Part shown: positions 14,516 through 24,698 of the stretch, piece after piece | Position numbering within the stretch: position 1 is the first letter of the stretch | Layout of the letters: each line of letters begins with the position of its first letter | Origin: Desulfosudaceae bacterium | Lineage (GTDB): Bacteria; Desulfobacterota; Desulfobacteria; Desulfobacterales; Desulfosudaceae | Assembly: GCA_963674745.2 (NCBI GenBank) | Contig: CAXXDV010000003.1 | Coordinates: 96,001 to 160,000 of the forward strand | Direction of reading: 5' to 3' | DNA: 64,000 bases | The notes under the pieces: generated by a model | What the model saw: only the letters and a program-made list of their open reading frames with translations | Databases searched by the model: none | What the model was told of the DNA's origin: nothing | Made by a program: the position numbers and the translations under genes

Positions 14516-15496
14516 ATGAATGAAAAAACCTGCCTGGTGACGGATATACAGCGATACTCGGTCAATGACGGGCCGGGCTTTCGCACCAATGTTTATTTAA
14601 AAGGATGTCCCCTGAAATGCACCTGGTGCCACAACCCGGAAACCATTTCCCCGGAACCGGACATATACTGGAAGCGCCGTTTGTGTGTGCAGTGCGGCGC
14701 CTGCCTGGATGTCTGCGACCGGGATGCCATATCCCCTCCCATTCCACCGGAAGAAGCGCAGCAGGAAGGCGCGACCTATCAGAAGATTATCCGTGAACGT
14801 TGCAATCGTTGTCTCAAGTGTATTGATGCCTGTGCCTATGACGCCCTGGAGATTTCCGGCCTCCCCATGACGGTGGAATCCGTTATGGCGGAAGTGGAGG
14901 CGGACCGTATTTTTTATGATACGTCCGGCGGCGGTATGACCTTAAGCGGTGGTGAGCCCACTTCGCAACGGGAGTTCTCTCTGGCGCTGCTGGCCGAAGC
15001 CAAAAACAGGCGCATTCATACCTGTCTGGATACCAACGGATTTTGCAATTGGGATTCCCTGGCTTCATTGTTACCAATGACCGATATCGTTCTGTTTGAC
15101 CTCAAGCACATGGATCCGGAACGGCACAAAGCCGGGACCGGTGTCGACAATAAACGCATTCTTGAAAACCTGGCCAGGCTGGCCGCTTCCGGTAAGGAAT
15201 ACTGGATCCGGATCCCGGTGGTCCCCGCTTTTAATGATGGTCCGGAATTTCATAAAACAGCCGCCCGTTTTCTGGCTGATCTGCCATCCCATCCGGCCCG
15301 GATCGACCTTCTGCCGTTTCATAACTGGTGTGAAAACAAGTATGACTGGCTCGGCCGGGACTGGGCACTGAAATTCACCGAGGCCATGCAGCCGTTTTTT
15401 CTGGAGTTGCCGGCGGAAATCTACCGGGATCAGGGCTTGACCGTGACCATCGGCGGCTCCGGGTTTGAGGAAACCGGGAAAGTCCAGAGCGCTTGA
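14516..15496 (+). CDS. assD: Glycyl-radical enzyme activating enzyme (radical SAM) for alkylsuccinate synthase
   Basis: DGPGFRT, CPLKCTWCHNPE (CxxxCxxC), ferredoxin insert CVQCGACLDVC/CNRCLKCIDAC, SGGEP, DTNG. Located near assA. Confidence 0.92.
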   Translation: MNEKTCLVTDIQRYSVNDGPGFRTNVYLKGCPLKCTWCHNPETISPEPDIYWKRRLCVQCGACLDVCDRDAISPPIPPEEAQQEGATYQKIIRERCNRCLKCIDACAYDALEISGLPMTVESVMAEVEADRIFYDTSGGGMTLSGGEPTSQREFSLALLAEAKNRRIHTCLDTNGFCNWDSLASLLPMTDIVLFDLKHMDPERHKAGTGVDNKRILENLARLAASGKEYWIRIPVVPAFNDGPEFHKTAARFLADLPSHPARIDLLPFHNWCENKYDWLGRDWALKFTEAMQPFFLELPAEIYRDQGLTVTIGGSGFEETGKVQSA

Positions 15497-15743: not shown

Positions 15744-16205
15744 ATGTTTTACAAAAAAAAGACCGGGGTATGGCTGGTCTGGGCAGTCGGTGCAGCCTTG
15801 GTGTTCCTTACCGGTGTTTTGCAACCGGACATCGCCCAGGCCGAGGTGGCTGTCATTGCCAATCCCTCTGTGCCCATCAGCAAGATTTCCAGTGATGATT
15901 TGAAAAAAATCTTTACCGGAAAGATGGTGGTCTGGGAGGGTGGCCAGTCAATCAAACCGGCCACATTGAATGACGGATCAGTACATGAAGAGTTTGTTAA
16001 AAACTATACCGGTAAAACCACCGACCAGTTTAAAACCTATTGGCGAAGGATGATTTTTACCGGGCAGGGGATTCAACCCAGAAGTTTTTCCAGTTCCAGG
16101 GACCTGATTGAGTATGTTTCTGAAACACCGGGCGCCATTGGATATGTTTCGCCTTCGGACATTTCGGCGGATTTAAAAAAGCTTAATGTTTCAGGAAAAG
16201 AATAA
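15744..16205 (+). CDS. Exported small periplasmic-binding-like protein (single PstS-like lobe)
   Basis: Signal peptide ending AQA, VIANPS, YWRRMIFTGQG, PGAIGYV. A family usually paired with a porin gene. Confidence 0.75.
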   Translation: MFYKKKTGVWLVWAVGAALVFLTGVLQPDIAQAEVAVIANPSVPISKISSDDLKKIFTGKMVVWEGGQSIKPATLNDGSVHEEFVKNYTGKTTDQFKTYWRRMIFTGQGIQPRSFSSSRDLIEYVSETPGAIGYVSPSDISADLKKLNVSGKE

Positions 16206-16215
16206 GGAGATAACC

Positions 16216-17610
16216 ATGAAGAAATTTATATTGCTAAGCATCATCAGTCTGGGGCTGGCAGCCAATGCCGGTGCGGTGGAACTGTCCGGAGGAGAACTTC
16301 ACGGTTTCATATCCCAGGGCTATTTGAATTCCAGCCACAATAATTTTCTTTCCCATGACAGCAAAGAGGGTAGTTTTGAATACATGGAGATGGGTATAAA
16401 TTTTAACAGATGGCTTACCCCCAACCTTACCGCCGGGTTTCAATTGTTTGCCAAGGACCTGGGCAAGGCCGAAAACCAGGAGGTCAAACTGGACTGGGCC
16501 ATCCTGAACTATCGCTGGGAACCCTGGCTCAACGCCAAAGCGGGCCGGCTGAAATTAAAGACCGGTTTGTACAATGACACCCGGGATATCGATATGGTCC
16601 GGCCCTGGGCGCTTCTGCCCCAGAGCTGTTACCTGGAGTATTTCCGGGACGCGTCCCTGTCGCTTGACGGCGGCGCGTTTTACGGAAATCTGCCCGCCGG
16701 CAAAATAGGCGACCTGTCCTATGAAGTTTATTTGGGAACCAAGGACATCAACACAGATCGCGACGGCACCATGACCCGGTTTATTGAAGACAATACCACC
16801 TTTGTTAACGAAGACATCAATAAATATGATTTTGACAGTGTCTGGGGGCTGAACCTTGAATGGCAAACCCCGGTAGAAGGACTGATCATCGGCGCATCGC
16901 ACACCAAGACGGACTTAAGGGTTTCCGCAACTTTCCAGGAAGATACCTTCGGCGGACCGCCCATGGTCAATGTCAACCAGGGCTTTGACCCCGCCACGGG
17001 CACCACCACCATCACCACCACGGTTACCACCATGGCCGTCAATGCCGGTGATTTACTTAAAACCCGGTACACGGAATTTGATGAACAGTATTATTACATC
17101 AGATATATCCGTGGGAACCTGGAGCTCTCAGGTGAATGCTGGCACCAGCGTAATGAACAAGATATCACGACCTGGTCCACCGGTGATATCGTCGCCACCA
17201 CGGAAACAACCGTCATCCCTGCGGCCGGCCCGCCAACCACCTCCACGGCGGTCAATGTGCTGGCCAACAGTTGGGCCAACATCATGGTTCAAAAAAGAGA
17301 AGCCCTGGGCTATTATGTGGCCGCAGCTTACCGGTTCAGTCACTGGTTTCAACTGGCCGGTTATTATTCGGTAGCCTTTCCGGATAAGGATGATAAGAGC
17401 GGTATTGATCAGGAAAAGGCCGGAAATAATGATTATGAAGCCTGGCTGAAAGATTATTGTATCACCCTGCGGTTTGATGTGGGCACCAACTGGACCTTCA
17501 AGCTGGAAAACCACTTTATGGACGGCGTCGCCTACCTCAACCGTGCTATCAACGGCGACCTCGAACAGCACTGGAACCTGTTTGTTGCCAAGGCCACATA
17601 TATGTTTTAG
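16216..17610 (+). CDS. Outer-membrane beta-barrel (porin-like) protein
   Basis: Signal peptide, HGFISQGY, LDWA, AGRLK, amphipathic beta strands, C-terminal TYMF. RBS AAGGAG before ATG 16216. Confidence 0.8.
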   Translation: MKKFILLSIISLGLAANAGAVELSGGELHGFISQGYLNSSHNNFLSHDSKEGSFEYMEMGINFNRWLTPNLTAGFQLFAKDLGKAENQEVKLDWAILNYRWEPWLNAKAGRLKLKTGLYNDTRDIDMVRPWALLPQSCYLEYFRDASLSLDGGAFYGNLPAGKIGDLSYEVYLGTKDINTDRDGTMTRFIEDNTTFVNEDINKYDFDSVWGLNLEWQTPVEGLIIGASHTKTDLRVSATFQEDTFGGPPMVNVNQGFDPATGTTTITTTVTTMAVNAGDLLKTRYTEFDEQYYYIRYIRGNLELSGECWHQRNEQDITTWSTGDIVATTETTVIPAAGPPTTSTAVNVLANSWANIMVQKREALGYYVAAAYRFSHWFQLAGYYSVAFPDKDDKSGIDQEKAGNNDYEAWLKDYCITLRFDVGTNWTFKLENHFMDGVAYLNRAINGDLEQHWNLFVAKATYMF

Positions 17611-18293: not shown

Positions 18294-18458
18294 ATGGCTG
18301 TATGTAATGAATGTAAACGTTTTTTCGCGCAGGATGAACAACCGGAAAAAGGTGACTGCGTCAGAAGAGGGGAAGATCCCCGGCAGGCGTTTTATACAGC
18401 CAGGCCGGTGACTGCCGAACAGGATGCGTCATCCTGTCCCGATTTTCAGAAGAAATAA
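18294..18458 (+). CDS. assC: Alkylsuccinate synthase gamma subunit (BssC/MasC-like), 54 aa, absent from the ORF track
   Basis: Hand translation MAVCNECKRFFAQDEQPEKGDCVRRGEDPRQAFYTARPVTAEQDASSCPDFQKK. CxxC..FF, KGDCV and C-x2-F pattern as in BssC. RBS AAGGAGG. Confidence 0.88.
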   Translation: MAVCNECKRFFAQDEQPEKGDCVRRGEDPRQAFYTARPVTAEQDASSCPDFQKK

Positions 18459-18513: not shown

Positions 18514-21012
18514 ATGTACGAAGCGGCCAAAACAATAGAAGAACTTGAGGAAAAGCAGCAGTGGTGGTGGGCGGCTGAAAAAAAACGTTCCAAGCGGCTG
18601 GACTACCTGAGAAAAGCCATCTGGAAAAAAGGCGCCGTGGGTGGCCTTTACAATCCCGGCGTGAAAGTTGAGCTGGAAAGGCCTCAGCTCCAGACCCAGA
18701 AAGCCAGGGAACTGGAAATGTCGCCCGATCCCTGGGTAATGAAATTCGCTCACATGTTCGCCCATGTGCTGGACAACAAAACCATTTTTATTACCGATCA
18801 TTCGCAGCTGGTGGGATATAACGCCGACCTTCCCAACACCATCGGCTGGGACCCGTCGATCGCTTCAATCCTCAATGAAGAGGTCTTTAACGACCCCTCT
18901 TCCCTGCCCGAACCGATCGAAGAATCCCAGAAAATCATCGCCGATATTAAGAATTACTGGGCAGGTAAGTCCGACCTGGACAAGATTATGCCGTATCTTG
19001 ATCTGGATGACATGATGAAGGTCCTGTCCGGCGCGGTCGGTTGGGGCGTTCCCCTGGCCCGGGGCGGTTATTCCGGCAAGGATTACGAGTATATCATGAC
19101 CGGCAAGCGCGGGTTCGAAGAGGTTATTGCCGAGCTTGACAAAAATATCGACGAAGCCGACGCCAAGGTTCATGAACCCGCGGCCAGCCAGGAAATCATG
19201 GAACTTTATGACAAGATGAACAACTGGGAGGCCATGCAGATCTGTCTGGAAGCCTGTATCCGGCATGCCAAGCGATATGCCCGCCTGGCCCGGATCATTG
19301 CTGAAAATTTTGAGACCGATGAAAAACGCAAACAGGAACTCCTGCAGATCGCCGAAGTGTGTGAGCGCGTTCCGGCCCAGCCGCCGAGAACCCTTCAGGA
19401 ATCCCTGCAGTACGATCTTTTTATTCAGCTTTTCAGCCGCACCGAAGCCATTGAAGGCGCCTGGCCGGCTCGCCCGGACTATTATCACGGACCTTACTAT
19501 CAAAAGGATGTTGTCGAGGATAAACGACTTACTCACGAAGAAGCCGTGGAACTGGCCGGCGAATTTCTCATCCGGGCGGCGGAAGTGGAACAGTACAAGC
19601 CCAAGTTTGCGCGGGAAGGGCTTCAGGGCATCAGCGGTACCTGGGTCTGGACACTGGGTGGGGTCAACAAGGACGGAAGCGATGCCTGCAACGGCATGAC
19701 CATTGCCCTGCTTCAGGCGGCCCGGTTGGTGCGGGTGGCCAATCCCACCTTTGCCTTCCGCTGGCATCCCAAGGTGTCCGATGAAGTCATGAAAGAGTGC
19801 TTTGAATGCATCCGTCAGGGACTGGGATACCCTTCCATGCGCAATGACCCCATTCTGATCGCCAATGCCATGAACTGGCACGGTCATCCCATCGATGAGG
19901 CCAGGACCTGGGTACACCAGGCCTGCATGTCACCGGCGCCGACCACCAAGCACGGATTCCAGCCCATGCGCATGGCCAATGCCACCGTCAACTGCGCCAA
20001 GATTATTGAATATGTTTTTTCCAGCGGGTTTGACAATGTGTTTAATATACAGATCGGTGCGGAAACACCGCCGGTGGAGGATTTGACCGATTTTGAAAAA
20101 GTTTACGAGGCCTGGGAAACCCAGATGAAAACCCTTTTCAGCCTGTTGGTGCGGCCGGTCAACCGGGCCCGTTCTTTGGCCCCGACCATGACCCCCCGGC
20201 CCTTTTTGTCCGGTATCTCCGAACGGTCGGTTGAAAGCGGCAAGGATGTCTGCGACCCCTCCGTCAGCCGGGGGAATTCCTGGATTACGGCCTTCACCTG
20301 GGTAGAGAACGCCGACAGTCTGGCAGCCGTAAAGAAGTTGGTTTTTGACGAAAAGAAATATACCCTGGCCGAACTCAAGGAAGCCATGGACGCCAACTGG
20401 GAAGGCAAAGAAGATATGCGGCTGGATTTTGTCAAGAACACACCCAAATGGGGCAACGACGACGATTATGTGGATGATATCATGCTGCGCTGCCTGCGTT
20501 CGGCGGCCAAGTTCTCCCGGGAAATAAAAGATCCCATGGGCAACAACTGGCCGATTTTGCCCGAGAACGTCAGCGGTAACATCCATTATGCCAACGTGGT
20601 CGGCGCCCTGCCCAACGGCCGGCGCCTGGGTGATGCCCTGTATGATGGCGGTATCTCTCCGGGTCCGGGACTGGACAAAAAAGGTCCCACGGCAGTACTC
20701 AAGTCCTGCGGTAAAATCGACCATATCTCCGACGGCCGGGCGTTTCTCTTGAATCAGCGGCTTTCGCCGACCCAACTGGCCGGCGAAAAAGGCTTCCAGA
20801 TGTGGAAGGCCTATATGCGTGCCTGGGCGGATCTGGGTATTGACCATGTGCAGTTCAACATGGTCGATGACACCACCTTGCGGGCTGCCCAGAAAGATCC
20901 CGAGGATTATCAGGAAGTGATTGTGCGGGTGGCCGGATACAGCGCCCATTTTGTGGATATCAGCCGGAAAACCCAGGATAATATTATTCAACGAACCATT
21001 CAGGGATTGTAA
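18514..21012 (+). CDS. assA: Alkylsuccinate / (1-methylalkyl)succinate synthase alpha subunit (glycyl radical enzyme)
   Basis: N-terminus WWWAAEKKRSKRLDYLRK, thiyl loop HQACMSP, FECIRQGLGYP, glycyl loop RVAGYSAHF. Flanked by small Fe-S subunits. Confidence 0.95.
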   Translation: MYEAAKTIEELEEKQQWWWAAEKKRSKRLDYLRKAIWKKGAVGGLYNPGVKVELERPQLQTQKARELEMSPDPWVMKFAHMFAHVLDNKTIFITDHSQLVGYNADLPNTIGWDPSIASILNEEVFNDPSSLPEPIEESQKIIADIKNYWAGKSDLDKIMPYLDLDDMMKVLSGAVGWGVPLARGGYSGKDYEYIMTGKRGFEEVIAELDKNIDEADAKVHEPAASQEIMELYDKMNNWEAMQICLEACIRHAKRYARLARIIAENFETDEKRKQELLQIAEVCERVPAQPPRTLQESLQYDLFIQLFSRTEAIEGAWPARPDYYHGPYYQKDVVEDKRLTHEEAVELAGEFLIRAAEVEQYKPKFAREGLQGISGTWVWTLGGVNKDGSDACNGMTIALLQAARLVRVANPTFAFRWHPKVSDEVMKECFECIRQGLGYPSMRNDPILIANAMNWHGHPIDEARTWVHQACMSPAPTTKHGFQPMRMANATVNCAKIIEYVFSSGFDNVFNIQIGAETPPVEDLTDFEKVYEAWETQMKTLFSLLVRPVNRARSLAPTMTPRPFLSGISERSVESGKDVCDPSVSRGNSWITAFTWVENADSLAAVKKLVFDEKKYTLAELKEAMDANWEGKEDMRLDFVKNTPKWGNDDDYVDDIMLRCLRSAAKFSREIKDPMGNNWPILPENVSGNIHYANVVGALPNGRRLGDALYDGGISPGPGLDKKGPTAVLKSCGKIDHISDGRAFLLNQRLSPTQLAGEKGFQMWKAYMRAWADLGIDHVQFNMVDDTTLRAAQKDPEDYQEVIVRVAGYSAHFVDISRKTQDNIIQRTIQGL

Positions 21013-21094: not shown

Positions 21095-21457
21095 ATGGCA
21101 AGAAAAAGTCGACAGGAGTTCGCCAATGCGTCCGGTGTTTTTGGGGTACAACAGACCCAGCCGGTGGAACAGGGAAAAGAGGTGCCGGATAAGCCCTGTG
21201 GTATGTGCGTGCATTTTTCCGAAAGTGCCTTTTCCAGCGACGGTCGAGGTGCCTGCAAGAAACTCAAGGAAGGCTCCAATATCAAGGTGGATCCGCCGGT
21301 TTACGTACTGGAAGGTAAAAACGGTTACATGATCAGGGCGTTGACCGACGCGGCCGGGTGCAAATATTATGAAAAAATGAAGTTCGTGGATAAAGACGGA
21401 TATGAATGCAGTGATCCGCAATTCAGGCGGACGTTGCGGCAGTTCCAGGACAAATAA
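21095..21457 (+). CDS. assB: Alkylsuccinate synthase small subunit (AssB/MasB-like), 120 aa
   Basis: RBS GGAGGAGG before ATG 21095. CGMCVHF...GRGAC...GCKYY Cys pattern of Fe-S small subunits. Confidence 0.8.
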   Translation: MARKSRQEFANASGVFGVQQTQPVEQGKEVPDKPCGMCVHFSESAFSSDGRGACKKLKEGSNIKVDPPVYVLEGKNGYMIRALTDAAGCKYYEKMKFVDKDGYECSDPQFRRTLRQFQDK

Positions 21458-21478: not shown

Positions 21479-21715
21479 ATGAAATGTACAGAATGCAGCC
21501 ATGAAGCACCGATGGCGGATTTTCGCTATCTTTACAATGCCCGTATTGATGCTTCGGTCAGTATCCGGCAGTGCACCAGCTGTGGAGCACACCTTGCAGT
21601 AGATGAAATTAAGGGAGAAGTCGTCCAGACGCTGGCCGATGGGGTTGCCCCCTGGGGTAAATCCACTGGTATAGAGGGCCTGGCGGATGACGTAACCGGC
21701 CAGGCGAGCGCTTGA
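21479..21715 (+). CDS. masE: MasE-like small subunit (rubredoxin/zinc-ribbon type)
   Basis: MKCTECSH...FRYLYNARID...RQCTSC. RBS AGGAGG. Confidence 0.78.
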   Translation: MKCTECSHEAPMADFRYLYNARIDASVSIRQCTSCGAHLAVDEIKGEVVQTLADGVAPWGKSTGIEGLADDVTGQASA

Positions 21716-21804
21716 GTCACGGTTCCGATAGACAAACGCAATATGTAGAACAGGTACTTTGCCAAAGGCGCAGGGTGCCTGTTTTATTTTAAAAGGAGGA
21801 CGGC

Positions 21805-22146
21805 ATGGAGTTTTCTTGCACGGCCTGCGGTCATACCGATGACCATATGCTGTTTCCCTATCTATGCCGCAACGGCTGACCGGCCACCGGAGAATCGGAA
21901 CTCCGGCAGTGTCCCAGGTGCGGGCAGGAACTTGTATTTTCAAAAACCGAGGCCCTGAGCCGGGAAGAATCGTTGATCGATCGGCTGGTGACCGACATCA
22001 GCCGCGTCAGTCGGGGTGATGATGACGCAACACGGCAGGCCGCCATCGAGAACATGAAGAAACTTTACCGGATCAATCAGCGCTGGAACCTGCCCGGCGT
22101 AAGGGAATTTATTTTAAAGAAACAAAAGGAACTGATGGGCTGGTAA
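21805..22146 (+). CDS. MasE-paralogous 113-aa protein with in-frame TGA at codon 25 (candidate selenoprotein)
   Basis: RBS AAAAGGAGG. MEFSCTACGHTDDHMLFPYLCRNG-(TGA 21877-21879)-PATGESELRQCPRCGQEL...KELMGW-TAA. The frame fills the masE-assE gap and a hairpin follows the TGA. Confidence 0.75.
21882..21914 (+). promoter_or_regulatory. Putative bacterial SECIS element
   Basis: Stem CCGGAG (21887-92)/CTCCGG (21901-06), loop AATCGGAA with GG 18-19 nt after the TGA. Possible lower stem GGCCAC/GTGTCC. Confidence 0.6.
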
Positions 22147-22174
22147 ATCTCATTATCAGATAAGGAGACAGGCA

Positions 22175-23020
22175 ATGAACCAGGCAGAAGGCCTGACCGT
22201 ACCGGAACACGAGAAGTATTTTTTTCTGCCCCGGCCGGTAACCGAGAATCTGGACAGGATTAAACTGCTGGCCGAGCGGCATCCGGTCAATGTGCTGGTG
22301 ACCGGCCGCCAGGGTTGCGGTAAATCAACCATGGTGCGTCAGTTTGCCGCCCGCAACAATCGCCCCCTGGCCACCTTTCAGGTCGGCATGCTGTCCGAGC
22401 CCGGCCAGTTGTTCGGTGAATACCGGCTCCGCGACGGCCGGACCGAATACCAGGAATTTCTTTTTCCCAAAGCCGTGCGCACCCCCGGATGTGTGGTTCA
22501 TTTAGAAGAAATCAACCGCCCGGAACACCCCAAGGCCTTAAACATGCTGTTTTCCATTTTGTCCGATGACCGGGCCATATGGACTGATGAACTGGGGTTG
22601 GTCAAGGTTGCCCCGGGGGTTGTTTTTTTCGCCACCCTTAACGAGGGCGAGGAATTTGCCGGTACGGAGATGCTGGATGCCGCCCTGGCCGACCGGTTTT
22701 ATGTGACCATGCTGGATTATCTGCCGCCGGCCGTGGAAACCGAAGTGCTGCGCGAAAAAGGCGGTATCAGCGAGGCCGACGCCTTGACGCTGGTCAATAT
22801 CGCCAATAAACTACGGGCCAACGCCCAGGAACCCATCGTTGTTTCCACCCGTCATACGCTGATGATGGCTGAAATGATCGCCGTCGGCGCCTCGGTTCGG
22901 GAAGCCATCACTTACAGTCTTCAGATCGACCGGGATGTGCTGGAGTCGGCCCTGTTGTCTTTGCACCTTGAAACCGGTGCCACCGACAGTGGGCGGGAGG
23001 ATGATTATCAGTCCTATTAA
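22175..23020 (+). CDS. assE: MoxR-type AAA+ ATPase (AssE/BssE/MasF-like)
   Basis: GRQGCGKS, LEEINR, FATLN, ALADRF. Precedes a vWA gene. Confidence 0.85.
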   Translation: MNQAEGLTVPEHEKYFFLPRPVTENLDRIKLLAERHPVNVLVTGRQGCGKSTMVRQFAARNNRPLATFQVGMLSEPGQLFGEYRLRDGRTEYQEFLFPKAVRTPGCVVHLEEINRPEHPKALNMLFSILSDDRAIWTDELGLVKVAPGVVFFATLNEGEEFAGTEMLDAALADRFYVTMLDYLPPAVETEVLREKGGISEADALTLVNIANKLRANAQEPIVVSTRHTLMMAEMIAVGASVREAITYSLQIDRDVLESALLSLHLETGATDSGREDDYQSY

Positions 23021-24698
23021 ACCGGAAGCCTGTTCGCCGACAGCAACCGAACTGTCACGGTTCTGGGCCAGAAACCGGGGACTGTCGGAGGCCTCCGCCC
23101 TGGCCAATCTGCTCAAGTCACTGCGAAAAGTGGCCGGCCATCTGGGGCCCAATGTCGGCCAGGTCCTTTTCCCGGGCATGTCTTTTGCCGATGCCGCGGC
23201 TATTATGATTGACCCTTCACCGGCCCGTGACTCGGATTACCCTCTGAACTTCCATATTATTGATGCCCTGGTAGGCCAGGTCGTCCATGAGGCTTTTCGC
23301 AGAGTCGAATGGAGCCAACGGGTCTGGATCCTTCTGGAAGATTTTATGGGCACCATAACCGGCCGTCAGCGGGTCAGCTTTCAGAAGCTGGTCGATATGG
23401 CGGAAACGATTTATGTGGATTATGCCGCCGGCCACACAACCGCCGGTCTTTATACCCACAAAGCCCGTCACGACGCCTTGCATCAATTATTATCGCAGCA
23501 CTTCAGAACAGATACGCTGGATTTTTTTCTGCTGGCCTGGCTGCAGTCCGCCTGGCCGGATTCCGGGGAACAGATACCGGTCCTTGACGGCATACCTGCT
23601 GAACTGCTCCAGTCTTTGCGTCCGGTGCTTCAGGCATTGAAAACCATTTCCGCTTCACCTGTCCGTCCCATGGAGCGTTGCCGGCAAAGAGCCGATTTGT
23701 ATCAGCGCCAATGGCAGGCGCTGGGGTCACAAATAATGACGTTGCCGGTCAAGGACAAAACCCTTTTTTATTATCCTGAATACGGCGTTTCAAAGAAACC
23801 GGGTAAAGTTTCCGCCGGAAAAAGTCTGCCGCCTTTGCCGGCATCCTTGATTCGGGATATGGAGCTGCAGTTGACGACCGGTGCCATGGACCTGACGCCG
23901 ATTGTCCATTCCGTGGCCGGTTATGACAACCCGGATGTTGTTCGAATGTCCCGCTGGGACTACAGTCAGCCCTGCCGGCCGGTGATCGATCGCCGGATGG
24001 TGTCGCGGCTGAAATCGATTTTTCTCAACTACGGTCCCCATCGCAAAGTTACCAGTACCGGCTTGAGCTCGGGGAAGGTTGATCCCCGGCGTCTTTATCG
24101 GGCCCCTTTGACGGGTAAATGTTTCCGGCAGCGGTATACGGTGGCCGAGGACCGCTGGCAGATATGCCTGCTGATCGATGCCAGCGGATCCATGCGGGGT
24201 AATAAAATGCGGATCGTGGAAAACACCATGGCCAACCTGAACAAGGCGATTTACGGCGGCCGGAATCGACTGTCGGTCTATGCCTATTTTGAAGTCAACA
24301 ATATCTGCATGTTTTCCAGCCTTCTGTCCGATAACCGGTTGCTGACCGTGCCGCCGGCCGGCAAGACGGCCTCGGGCCAGGCGATTATCGCCGCTGCCTG
24401 GCTTATGGAAAGAGGCCATGGACGACAACGTAACCTGATCGTGCATATTACCGATGGAGAATCAAACTTCGGTTGTGATGTCCGTTATGGCATTGATTAC
24501 TGTCGCCGTGAAAAAGTATCTCTGGTTACCCTGGGGTGCGGTTGTCAGGACGTGACGGCCATGAGAAAACAATACGGGCATACGATTCAGTTTTTAAAAA
24601 GCTACGAACAACTTCCCCCGGCCATGGAGCGGCTGTTCAAACGCCTGTTTCTCCATGCTGATCCAAGTGCTGTTCCAGTAAACCAGGTAAGTAAATAA
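23001..24698 (+). CDS. assF: vWA-domain protein (AssF/BssF-like)
   Basis: SGKVDPRRLYR, MIDAS DASGSM, ITDGE. RBS GGGAGG before ATG 23001. Confidence 0.8.
   Translation: MIISPIKPEACSPTATELSRFWARNRGLSEASALANLLKSLRKVAGHLGPNVGQVLFPGMSFADAAAIMIDPSPARDSDYPLNFHIIDALVGQVVHEAFRRVEWSQRVWILLEDFMGTITGRQRVSFQKLVDMAETIYVDYAAGHTTAGLYTHKARHDALHQLLSQHFRTDTLDFFLLAWLQSAWPDSGEQIPVLDGIPAELLQSLRPVLQALKTISASPVRPMERCRQRADLYQRQWQALGSQIMTLPVKDKTLFYYPEYGVSKKPGKVSAGKSLPPLPASLIRDMELQLTTGAMDLTPIVHSVAGYDNPDVVRMSRWDYSQPCRPVIDRRMVSRLKSIFLNYGPHRKVTSTGLSSGKVDPRRLYRAPLTGKCFRQRYTVAEDRWQICLLIDASGSMRGNKMRIVENTMANLNKAIYGGRNRLSVYAYFEVNNICMFSSLLSDNRLLTVPPAGKTASGQAIIAAAWLMERGHGRQRNLIVHITDGESNFGCDVRYGIDYCRREKVSLVTLGCGCQDVTAMRKQYGHTIQFLKSYEQLPPAMERLFKRLFLHADPSAVPVNQVSK

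Follow-up and report, generated by a model that had tools for sequence, protein, structure and literature searches.

In the 64,000-nt stretch of DNA analyzed here (the window), genes of an alkylsuccinate synthase (ass) operon lie on the + strand, and all features below are given in window coordinates on that strand. They encode a glycyl radical activating enzyme (AssD-like, 14516-15496; Pfam Radical_SAM and ferredoxin-type domains), the gamma subunit of the BssC/TutF family (18294-18458; Pfam PF08201, 1.9e-17), the catalytic glycyl radical subunit AssA (18514-21012; Pfam PFL-like, 4.1e-128, and Gly_radical, 3.6e-29) and orthologues of two small subunits, MasB/MASS-beta (120 aa, 21095-21457; 9o8u_B, E 9.5e-25) and the canonical MasE/MASS-delta (78 aa with TGA as its stop, 21479-21715; 9o8u_D, E 8.1e-24). 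Further downstream are a MoxR/CbbQ-type AAA ATPase (AssE-like, 22175-23020; Pfam AAA_5, 1.5e-20, and CbbQ_C, 4.7e-8) and its VWA-domain partner (AssF-like, 22935-24698; Pfam VWA, 1.9e-7, and the ORF list). The listed VWA frame overlaps the ATPase gene, so its true start may be further downstream. The gene studied here is located directly upstream of the ATPase, with the small-subunit genes on one side and the MoxR-type ATPase/VWA pair on the other, inside the operon as the original prediction had placed it. A terminator-like hairpin with a U-run is present between masE and this gene in the window.

The reading frame (21805-22146) opens at ATG 21805, 5 nt after a Shine-Dalgarno sequence read as AGGAGG (21794-21799), and continues for 113 codons to TAA (22144-22146), with a single TGA at codon 25 (21877-21879) in the context C-R-N-G-U-P-A-T. 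The strong ribosome-binding site and the 113-codon frame with one TGA were thus correctly described before. Translation with TGA as U gives a protein whose orthologues at 71-79% identity share the identical lone in-frame TGA. Contigs from RNA libraries over 21791-21896, 21947-22124 and 22063-22213 derive from relatives, and transcription is not implied by them; the shares in two RNA-library runs were small (0.10 and 0.05).

The N-terminal part of the read-through protein (codons 1-46, 21805-21942) is a domain related to MasE, probably of rubredoxin type, as indicated by phmmer, hhalign and Foldseek. The phmmer comparison with MasE of the solved enzyme (9o8u_D) gave an E-value of 5.6e-4 (23.2 bits), and hhalign against the window's own MasE gave 85% probability and an E-value of 5.8e-6 over 41 columns. 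Cys5, Cys8, Cys36 and Cys39, invariant in 25 sequences, align with Cys3, Cys6, Cys32 and Cys35 of 9o8u_D. It follows from this alignment that the second CxxC (Cys36/Cys39) sits past the TGA and that, as had been claimed, read-through is needed to complete the four-Cys site. Sec25 aligns with none of the four metal ligands; it is located in the inter-knuckle loop, which exceeds that of MasE by 2 residues and carries Cys21-x3-Sec25. Most relatives continue this motif with -x2-Cys28, residue 28 being Thr here, and in the tree the Thr28 forms are found in basal groups. The remainder of the protein (codons 47-113, 21943-22143) was predicted by AlphaFold to form a three-helix domain (helices 47-66, 74-94 and 99-111), which agrees with the helical C-terminal extension proposed earlier and includes the columns N91, R93, W94 and N95, invariant in the 25-sequence alignment. 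The mean pLDDT of the model is 84.3, and its weakest part is the Sec loop (residues 21-30, pLDDT 57). The top Foldseek match of this model was again 9o8u_D (probability 1.00, rmsd 2.1 A, 47 columns, 32% identity), although the match is a weak one by E-value (0.14) and TM-scores (0.35 and 0.55). Searches of the protein against Pfam yielded a sub-threshold zinc-ribbon match only, NCBIfam yielded no match above cut-offs, and in a protein atlas all matches of P0021, a natural Cys homologue, were below 0.9 and carry no weight. The suggestion of a MasE paralogue agrees with all three comparisons with MasE, which support the view that the N-terminal 45 residues are a distant paralogue and not an orthologue, the orthologue being the neighbouring gene.

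To examine the TGA codon across genomes, we searched two sets of 401 genomes, one from the order and one sampled from the phylum, in a way that tolerates stop codons. In the order, homologues of the main group were found at 28 places in 26 genomes, and 22 of these places had TGA at codon 25; the other six had Cys (five) or Leu (one). The phylum sample added 12 genomes with a homologue, 11 with TGA and one with Cys (codon position verified in eight of the TGA loci and in the Cys locus). A more distant subgroup, present in six genomes, also has one TGA, at an equivalent position in the four that were verified, and database relatives have Cys-Cys there. Overall, codon 25 is TGA in 30 aligned homologues, TGC or TGT in the Cys forms and TTA in one. 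Cys occupies this position in G017 (2 copies), G102 (2 copies), G194 and G711, as well as in 21 loci from a scan of a genome collection; the pattern used for that scan had Cys at the Sec column, so that it could find Cys forms only and served as a control set from which no Sec:Cys ratio can be taken. The single Leu homologue (TTA) comes from a 65%-complete metagenome-assembled genome (G109). It had been asked whether codon 25 aligns with Cys or with a conserved TGA, and the answer is both, Cys being found in the Desulfatibacillum-type homologues; Trp, Arg or Gly, which would have spoken against selenocysteine, was seen at this site in none of the aligned order and phylum homologues. Distant full-length relatives (e.g. 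P0033, P0035 and P0046) have Ile or a loop without Cys, which implies that the Sec/Cys site is dispensable across the wider family. We also considered that the Cys forms might reflect loss of the Sec trait, and rejected this since selA was present in all five of the five non-Sec genomes tested.

Selection on the codons behind the TGA was estimated from five TGA forms of the family. The dN/dS ratio was 0.08 upstream of the TGA, while codons 26-110 gave 0.22 and codons 41-110 gave 0.20; purifying selection therefore extends downstream of the TGA, contrary to one way in which the gene could have been refuted. Invariant residues (A27, G29, E30, R34, C36, P37, C39 and G40) occur within residues 26-43, 5' of any start codon: no ATG, GTG or TTG is in frame between the TGA and codon 57, where a TTG offers the first possible internal start (ORF 21973-22146). 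It was also foreseen that gene callers would miss such a gene, and 34 of the 49 database representatives are indeed C-terminal fragments that start past the TGA, while the homologues retrieved by word search are C-terminal gene calls of 63-70 aa. If the TGA were a true stop, the locus would yield a 24-residue peptide together with a second protein begun at an internal start further downstream, or it would be a gene killed by nonsense mutation or sequencing error. Gene calls that treat the TGA as a stop, the in-frame TTG at codon 57 and the use of TGA as a normal stop in this genome fit this reading, but we find it scarcely credible, because 39 genomes retain the TGA, even where protein identity falls to ~35%, and the frame stays open before and after it, because the invariant residues and the dN/dS values argue against it, and because the Cys36-x2-Cys39 knuckle requires Cys5-x2-Cys8 on the same chain for the MasE metal site. 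A base-call error in particular is ruled out by the conservation of the TGA in other genomes. A public sequencing run contains an identical contig of 8887 nt, which points the same way, although that run may be the source sample and the contig is hence not independent support.

A SECIS-like hairpin was identified immediately downstream of the TGA (21887-21906), with a 6-bp stem (21887-21892/21901-21906) and an 8-nt loop (21893-21900), as a consensus of 22 TGA forms. It begins 7 nt past the TGA, and its loop contains GG (21897-21898) at 18-19 nt past the TGA, as noted previously. The apical loop begins 14 nt past the UGA, which is near the lower limit of the spacings published for bacterial SECIS elements. 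Among the 22 TGA forms of the order, 95.5% of pair cells are paired, versus 35-51% with the partner slid, and one pair is compensatory (G-C in 14, C-G in seven and other in one), which may represent a single evolutionary event. We further compared the folding of these regions with that of synonymous-codon shuffles. The TGA forms (n=30) had a mean dG of -14.8 and a mean z of -2.55, with 21 of the 30 at or below the 5% level. The corresponding values were a mean z of -0.31 and one of five for the non-Sec forms (n=5), and a mean dG of -9.0, a mean z of -0.10 and two of 21 for the Cys forms of the genome-collection scan, four of which are also within the n=5 non-Sec set. The Cys forms compared encode nearly the same peptide as the TGA forms; synonymous codon choice preserves the hairpin in the TGA forms and not in the Cys forms. 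The window's hairpin alone is unexceptional (z -0.89 against dinucleotide shuffles, 39 of 200 of which fold equally well or better; z -1.8 against synonymous-codon shuffles, with a fraction of 0.067 reaching it), and its significance comes from the cross-genome comparison. When 21700-22200 was compared with Rfam, three matches at chance level were obtained (E 2.7-8.5), none of them SECIS-related; this result has little weight, as Rfam is not known to include a general bacterial SECIS model.

The genome was also searched for the machinery of Sec insertion, and all four components were detected above curated cut-offs: tRNA-Sec (75.1 bits), selA (607.9 bits), selB (369.8 bits) and a Sec-type selD (368.6 bits) that carries an in-frame TGA of its own. 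Of the 38 other genomes with TGA forms, 36 gave a selA match; completeness is 75% and 83% for the two that did not. In the window, TGA is the ordinary stop of four of 15 neighbouring genes, masE among them.

One might still suppose that the UGA is read through by other means, either by a near-cognate tRNA that inserts Trp or Cys or by SelB-free local recoding. In favour of this, the identity of residue 25 comes from sequence, the hairpin sits near the UGA, the window's copy is unremarkable when taken alone, and one homologue tolerates Leu. Against this, the codon alternates with Cys codons in the classic Sec/Cys pattern, the hairpin is maintained in TGA forms only, the Sec machinery of the genome is complete and accompanied by selA in nearly all other TGA-form genomes, and neighbouring genes are terminated by TGA. 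We regard such read-through as very improbable. It is most likely, and in our judgment with high confidence, that 21805-22146 is a real and intact selenoprotein gene as well as a MasE paralogue and a component of the ass operon. From the comparison of genomes, the organism's SelA, SelB, SelD and tRNA-Sec would decode UGA25 as selenocysteine, with insertion presumably directed by the SECIS-type hairpin that starts 7 nt past the UGA.

The genomic context of the gene is well conserved on its 3' side. In 23 of 26 other loci, a MoxR gene is located directly 3' of the Sec/Cys gene, and the gene on the upstream side may be either MasE or MasB. Within the 401 genomes examined for co-occurrence, 32 contain an AssA-like enzyme with at least 43% identity and 32 contain a member of the family, with an overlap of 30. 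In the distant subgroup, the adjoining genes encode a VWA protein and radical SAM proteins. At loci where no MasE gene is found between AssA and MoxR, the Sec protein could have been a replacement for MasE; this was rejected, as canonical MasE is present elsewhere in all five of the five genomes checked. The role of accessory subunit or redox partner of the enzyme, which the original prediction assigned to the protein, is suggested by its operon position, its co-occurrence with the enzyme and its paralogy to MasE.

A selenoprotein of this kind could also belong to the MoxR/VWA module as a free factor with a redox or metal-handling role, for example by supplying the small Fe and Fe-S subunits with iron or checking it; it would then be no subunit of the enzyme, and its contact with AssA would be transient or nil. 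The constancy of the MoxR ATPase and the variable upstream gene fit such a factor, as do the terminator-like hairpin that separates the gene from masE in the window, the VWA and radical SAM neighbours of the distant subgroup and, according to the part of the structural report covered here, the completeness of the solved HxN1 enzyme without such a protein (PMC12358834). On the other hand, the N-terminal domain is paralogous to a subunit that binds the alpha subunit, and the protein co-occurs nearly one to one with AssA-like enzymes. We see this as a serious possibility, though one to which we would give somewhat less than even chances.

Returning to a protein that acts at the enzyme itself, we tentatively propose the following model. 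Cys5, Cys8, Cys36 and Cys39 occupy the places of the four Fe ligands of MasE, and the delta-like domain would dock the protein on AssA or on the assembling complex. The Sec/Cys pair could form a redox-active site, by way of a selenenylsulfide, or a site that touches the metal, and the protein may join the MoxR/VWA chaperone in the assembly, activation or repair of an oxygen- and radical-sensitive enzyme. The combination of docking, a redox or metal site and MoxR/VWA-assisted maturation is possible, and we put it forward with reserve. A bolder extension, which we consider rather doubtful, is that the protein is a fifth, Sec-bearing component of the enzyme system, in which the delta-like module sits at the activase/glycyl-radical-domain face of AssA and the Cys/Sec pair takes part in radical or redox control, and that most sulfate-reducing or syntrophic alkane degraders that use alkylsuccinate synthase need selenium for this enzyme. 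Under this extension, the Cys/Sec pair might quench, re-arm or protect the glycyl radical, or pass electrons or iron during maturation driven by MoxR/VWA.

In oil reservoirs, seeps and contaminated sediments, the anaerobic degradation of alkanes begins with alkylsuccinate synthases, enzymes whose accessory proteins are just starting to be resolved, with the first structure in 2025. Since gene callers stop at the UGA, a conserved member of the operon has been invisible and is left out of operon inventories, comparative genomics and heterologous expression. The selenoprotein reading would link selenium to anaerobic oil degradation. If the protein is needed for activity, selenium supply would be a factor in anaerobic alkane degradation, and hosts with a different SECIS requirement would fail to express it unless supplied with a Cys form or with a variant in which Cys replaces Sec. 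Selenoprotein biology would gain a family with a clear genomic context and an unusually clean natural control in the Cys forms, which encode nearly the same peptide without the hairpin. Should the protein prove to be a fifth component, it would be the first selenoprotein to be connected with a glycyl radical enzyme and with the activation of hydrocarbons under anaerobic conditions.

Within the families and literature searched, neither a curated family nor a paper describing this gene was found, in line with the statement that no description was known. Literature searches on selenoproteins in connection with alkylsuccinate synthase, with fumarate addition or alkanes and with glycyl radical enzymes returned nothing relevant by title or abstract, and searches with the locus tags Dalk_1732-1734 and Dalk_2200-2202 returned no paper. 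The stem "selen" is absent from PMC12358834, PMC13685792 and PMC7180275, and a 2026 review of selenoproteomes has no mention of alkylsuccinate, glycyl radical, rubredoxin, zinc ribbon, hydrocarbon or MoxR.

Two NCBIfam selenoprotein families bear some resemblance to the protein. NF049953 (zinc ribbon-containing (seleno)protein DG) also describes a zinc-ribbon selenoprotein and is the only selenoprotein model that P0004 matches at all, but at 14.5 bits (E 0.024) against a cut-off of 130 bits P0004 is not a member. NF041197 (dual CXXC motif small (seleno)protein) corresponds to "hypothetical protein OS_HP3 / DW" and, as far as the consulted portions of its descriptions go, is likewise small, has two CxxC knuckles with Sec between them and occurs in Desulfosarcina-type hydrocarbon degraders (PMC12013277; PMC13188914). 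It differs in its length of ~54 aa, in having no helical domain and in that those portions report no link to an ass operon; P0004 gave no match to its HMM at E-values up to 0.1 (cut-off 40 bits).

The closest characterized relative is MasE (MASS-delta), the rubredoxin-like delta subunit of (1-methylalkyl)succinate synthase (PDB 9o8u chain D; Andorfer et al., 2025; PMC12358834). In the sections of that report considered here, the HxN1 enzyme was solved as alpha2-beta-gamma2-delta, and MasE is a single-Fe subunit of ~70 aa whose tail lies on the glycyl radical domain (PMC12358834). The Sec protein resembles MasE in its CX2C...CX2C at matching positions, in sequence, as its best structural match and in belonging to the same operon. 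It differs in the presence of Sec25 and Cys21 in the longer loop, in its occurrence alongside canonical MasE, in its absence from the HxN1 complex as described in those sections (PMC12358834), and in its length of 113 aa, with a three-helix domain of ~65 residues instead of the ~20-residue tail of MasE. The Desulfatibacillum Cys homologues (ACL03430.1 / WP_012610864.1 cluster, annotated as "hypothetical protein") are of equal length, share 39-45% identity with the Sec protein and are likewise located between MasE and MoxR; they have Cys (TGC/TGT) in place of Sec within the motif C-x3-C-x2-C, and the hairpin has been lost in most Cys forms.

The Sec gene occupies positions 21805-22146 of the forward strand. 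A Shine-Dalgarno-like AGGAGG read from the sequence (21794-21799, +) lies 5 nt ahead of the ATG at 21805, and the frame runs through 113 codons to a TAA at 22144-22146 with a sole in-frame TGA (21877-21879) at codon 25, exactly as the original prediction had described it. No in-frame start codon is available after the TGA ahead of codon 57, and the table 11 ORF list contains here just a 57-codon remnant beginning with TTG (21973-22146). On the same strand, Pfam identified an activating enzyme (14516-15496), a gamma subunit of the BssC/TutF type (18294-18458) and the glycyl radical enzyme AssA (18514-21012) upstream, as well as a MoxR/CbbQ-type ATPase (22175-23020) and a VWA protein (22935-24698) downstream, while orthologues of MasB (21095-21457; 9o8u_B, E 9.5e-25) and MasE (21479-21715; 9o8u_D, E 8.1e-24) were recognized by structure-database search. 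As listed, the VWA ORF begins 86 nt within the MoxR ORF (overlap 22935-23020); its real start is probably further downstream. The interval between the activase and gamma subunit genes (15744-17610) holds two ORFs, one of which (153 aa) had a weak periplasmic-binding-protein match, and the other (474 aa) belonged to no family in Pfam or NCBIfam. The 89-nt spacer between masE and the Sec gene (21716-21804) contains a strong hairpin followed by UUUUAUUUU (21745-21790), immediately 5' of the ribosome-binding site of the Sec gene. The folding energy of this spacer is -28.3 kcal/mol (z -3.12; equalled by none of 200 shuffles), and a terminator scan marks 21766-21782. The hairpin could terminate transcription in part, or be processed, and thereby lower the level of the Sec-MoxR-VWA part of the operon.

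The main evidence for a Sec codon came from stop-tolerant searches of whole genomes. In a set of 61 relatives, orthologues with one TGA each (71-78% identity) occurred in four members of the window's family, and one genome of another family has two stop-free copies. A profile search of 401 genomes of the order gave matches in 32, including main-group homologues at 28 places in 26 genomes. Twenty-two of these places have one TGA, which translation put in one shared column throughout; the six places without TGA have Cys (five, in three Desulfatibacillum-type genomes) or Leu (one, TTA, in a 65%-complete MAG). The remaining six genomes, which carry a weaker subgroup, have one TGA each, at the equivalent position in all four loci translated, and database relatives of this subgroup have Cys-Cys at the corresponding spot. 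In a phylum-wide sample (also 401 genomes), 12 more genomes from other orders were found, 11 with TGA and one with Cys; here the codon-25 column was checked at eight TGA loci and the Cys locus. With respect to individual orthologues, the TTA of the Leu form (L043, genome G109) is one base from TGA and its hairpin is mostly intact. Another orthologue (L040, genome G186) has an extra TAA at codon 105 beside the TGA, which could mean that the C-terminus is shortened, that the copy is decaying or that the assembly is wrong.

A hairpin is common to the 22 TGA forms of the order, with a stem that starts 7 nt 3' of the TGA (columns 11-17 with 24-30). Its pair cells were paired in 95.5% of cases, versus 35-51% when the partner strand was slid by 1-3 columns, and the observed pairing was matched by none of 500 shuffles. 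One stem pair alternates (G-C in 14 forms, C-G in seven and unpaired in one), linking position 2 of codon 28 (Cys TGC or Thr ACC) with the synonymous position 3 of an Arg codon (CGC or CGG). Since the Thr28 forms are in basal groups of the protein tree, this compensatory switch may represent one event rather than several. A sharper comparison is provided by a synonymous-codon test, in which the peptide was fixed, codons were redrawn from the codon usage of the operon and the 33 nt after the TGA were folded. Among TGA forms, 21 of 30 fold better than 95% of the redraws (mean dG -14.8, mean z -2.55), versus one of five non-Sec forms (mean z -0.31). A genome-collection scan, whose pattern demanded Cys at the Sec column and which hence recovered Cys forms only, yielded 21 loci encoding nearly the same peptide (PACGESDLR-type), four of which coincide with places in the set of five; their mean dG was -9.0 and mean z -0.10, with two of the 21 below 5%. 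This contrast implies that the hairpin is kept by RNA-level selection only where the codon is TGA, although the genomes are related and the independent observations are therefore fewer than these counts. The hairpin of the window itself is marginal, both in the synonymous test (0.067) and against dinucleotide shuffles (z -0.89; 39 of 200 fold as well).

Constraint extends beyond the TGA. Pooled over the five TGA forms from the window's family, dN/dS was 0.08 ahead of the TGA (codons 1-24) and 0.22 beyond it (codons 26-110), or 0.20 over codons 41-110, and residues A27, G29, E30, R34, C36, P37, C39 and G40, directly past the TGA, are invariant in 25 sequences. The window genome possesses tRNA-Sec (75.1 bits), selB (369.8 bits), selA (607.9 bits) and selD (368.6 bits). 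Its selD (L032, G000:C1:326061-326981) also encodes a selenoprotein, and the single in-frame TGA falls within the usual glycine-rich motif. selA was detected in 36 of 38 other genomes with TGA forms, and both genomes without a match are incomplete (75% and 83%). Reassignment of TGA in the window genome is contradicted by its use as an ordinary stop in four of 15 genes around the locus, including masE. Loss of the Sec trait does not account for the Cys forms, since selA is present in all five non-Sec genomes. In a 34-row tree, which was built with the Sec column masked and the extra-TAA copy and one duplicate left out, TGA forms are interrupted by Cys forms at two separate points and by the Leu form at a third; at least three state changes at codon 25 would thus be needed, their direction being unpolarised under the midpoint root. 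Taken together, the conserved codon, its alternation with Cys, the hairpin restricted to TGA forms, the constraint downstream and the complete Sec machinery bear out the proposed reading of the TGA as Sec, and it is very likely that this is a selenoprotein gene.

The predicted relationship to MasE also held. The read-through protein matched 9o8u_D (E 5.6e-4), with Cys5, Cys8, Cys36 and Cys39 aligned to Cys3, Cys6, Cys32 and Cys35, which are given as the four Fe ligands of MasE in the structural report (PMC12358834), and the family profile matched the window's own MasE over 41 columns (85% probability, E 5.8e-6). An AlphaFold model based on 25 sequences (mean pLDDT 84.3) has five short strands in residues 2-46, followed by helices at 47-66, 74-94 and 99-111; its top PDB match was again 9o8u_D (rmsd 2.1 A over 47 columns, 32% identity, probability 1.00), yet with a weak E-value of 0.14. 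The Sec-bearing loop between the knuckles is two residues longer than in MasE and was modelled with low certainty (pLDDT 57). Across the family Sec25 is always near at least one Cys: Cys21 and Cys28 in most forms, Cys21 alone in the window (where residue 28 is Thr), Cys21 and Cys24, or Cys28 alone. Such a pattern would suit a Sec/Cys redox pair; as most forms have seven Cys/Sec residues, a second metal site or cluster is a possible alternative. In secreted-looking proteins of 226-270 aa (P0060, P0070 and P0080), three to four repeats matching profile positions 15-48 (H-Y-x-C-x-N-G-C-x-G ... C-P-x-C-G ... H-N-x-A-Y-H) pair a C-x3-C knuckle with CxxC, implying that Cys21-x3-Sec25 might itself be a metal-binding knuckle. 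More distant full-length relatives have no Cys at the Sec site, so the scaffold has a role independent of Sec.

The gene, a paralogue of masE, is a constant component of the alkylsuccinate synthase operon in Thermodesulfobacteriota-type alkane degraders. An AssA-like enzyme (at least 43% identity) and a family member were each found in 32 of the 401 genomes of the order, and both in 30. The two enzyme-only genomes are fragmented assemblies; one protein-only genome is 65% complete and in the other AssA is cut at a contig end. At the other 26 main-group loci, MasE or MasB is encoded next upstream, and the 1.5-kb flank includes the AssA C-terminus in 16; MoxR and then VWA genes follow directly 3' in 23, and the downstream flanks of the other three comprise about 220 nt, about 600 nt and 1500 nt without a match. 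Three Desulfatibacillum-type loci (L035, L018 and L037) have no MasB-like gene in the AssA-MasE interval, unlike the window, indicating that lineages vary in the order of their small-subunit genes. Enzymes of 43-47% identity occur in exactly the six genomes that have the distant subgroup, and three genomes with enzymes of 37-38% identity gave no match to the Sec-protein query. Loci of this subgroup (L056-L059, L060 at G071:C1:1291000-1310900, and L061) lie next to genes for radical SAM proteins, a VWA protein or an activase-like protein, and in G071 this 43-47%-identity glycyl radical enzyme is about 8 kb from the subgroup gene. There may thus be a second X-succinate-synthase-like system here, so far uncharacterised, that has a Sec protein of its own.

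Replacement of MasE by the Sec protein is ruled out: canonical MasE is also present in all five genomes checked, so the Sec protein is an extra component. The solved HxN1 enzyme is alpha2-beta-gamma2-delta, and its delta subunit is at the binding place of the activating enzyme and contacts the glycyl radical domain (PMC12358834). Based on this position, the MasE paralogy and the operon context, we infer that the delta-like domain of the Sec protein would dock on AssA or the assembling complex and act jointly with the MoxR/VWA chaperone, where the Sec/Cys pair might provide redox or metal chemistry in assembly, activation or repair. An alternative in which the protein is part of the chaperone module rather than a stable subunit appears about equally probable.

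The original prediction had also stated that gene callers would miss this gene, and homologues in sequence collections are indeed mostly truncated. Of 49 database representatives, 34 start no earlier than profile position 29, 11 have full length but no Sec, one is N-terminal only and three are unrelated-looking secreted repeat proteins; in a word-based search all five close matches (63-70 aa) cover the C-terminal 56-62% only. Cys homologues of Desulfatibacillum are deposited as 'hypothetical protein'. No NCBIfam model reached its cut-off, and the two selenoprotein models for which a match was seen or anticipated lay far below theirs. The Sec protein was not described in the literature searched, a scope that excludes the BSepDB family table and Haft and Tolstoy 2025: 'selen' does not occur in three published accounts of these operons (PMC12358834, PMC13685792 and PMC7180275), a 2026 review of prokaryotic selenoproteins has none of six terms relevant to these operons and proteins, and none of the model identifiers given per family in the accessible part of its table matches. 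Within this literature, the protein appears to be undescribed so far, and its novelty lies in a glycyl-radical-enzyme accessory protein that bears selenocysteine. 'Hypothetical protein DW' of the deep-Sep study, a dual-CXXC selenoprotein of 54 residues (NF041197; PMC12013277, PMC13188914), resembles the Sec protein in layout but belongs to a different family.
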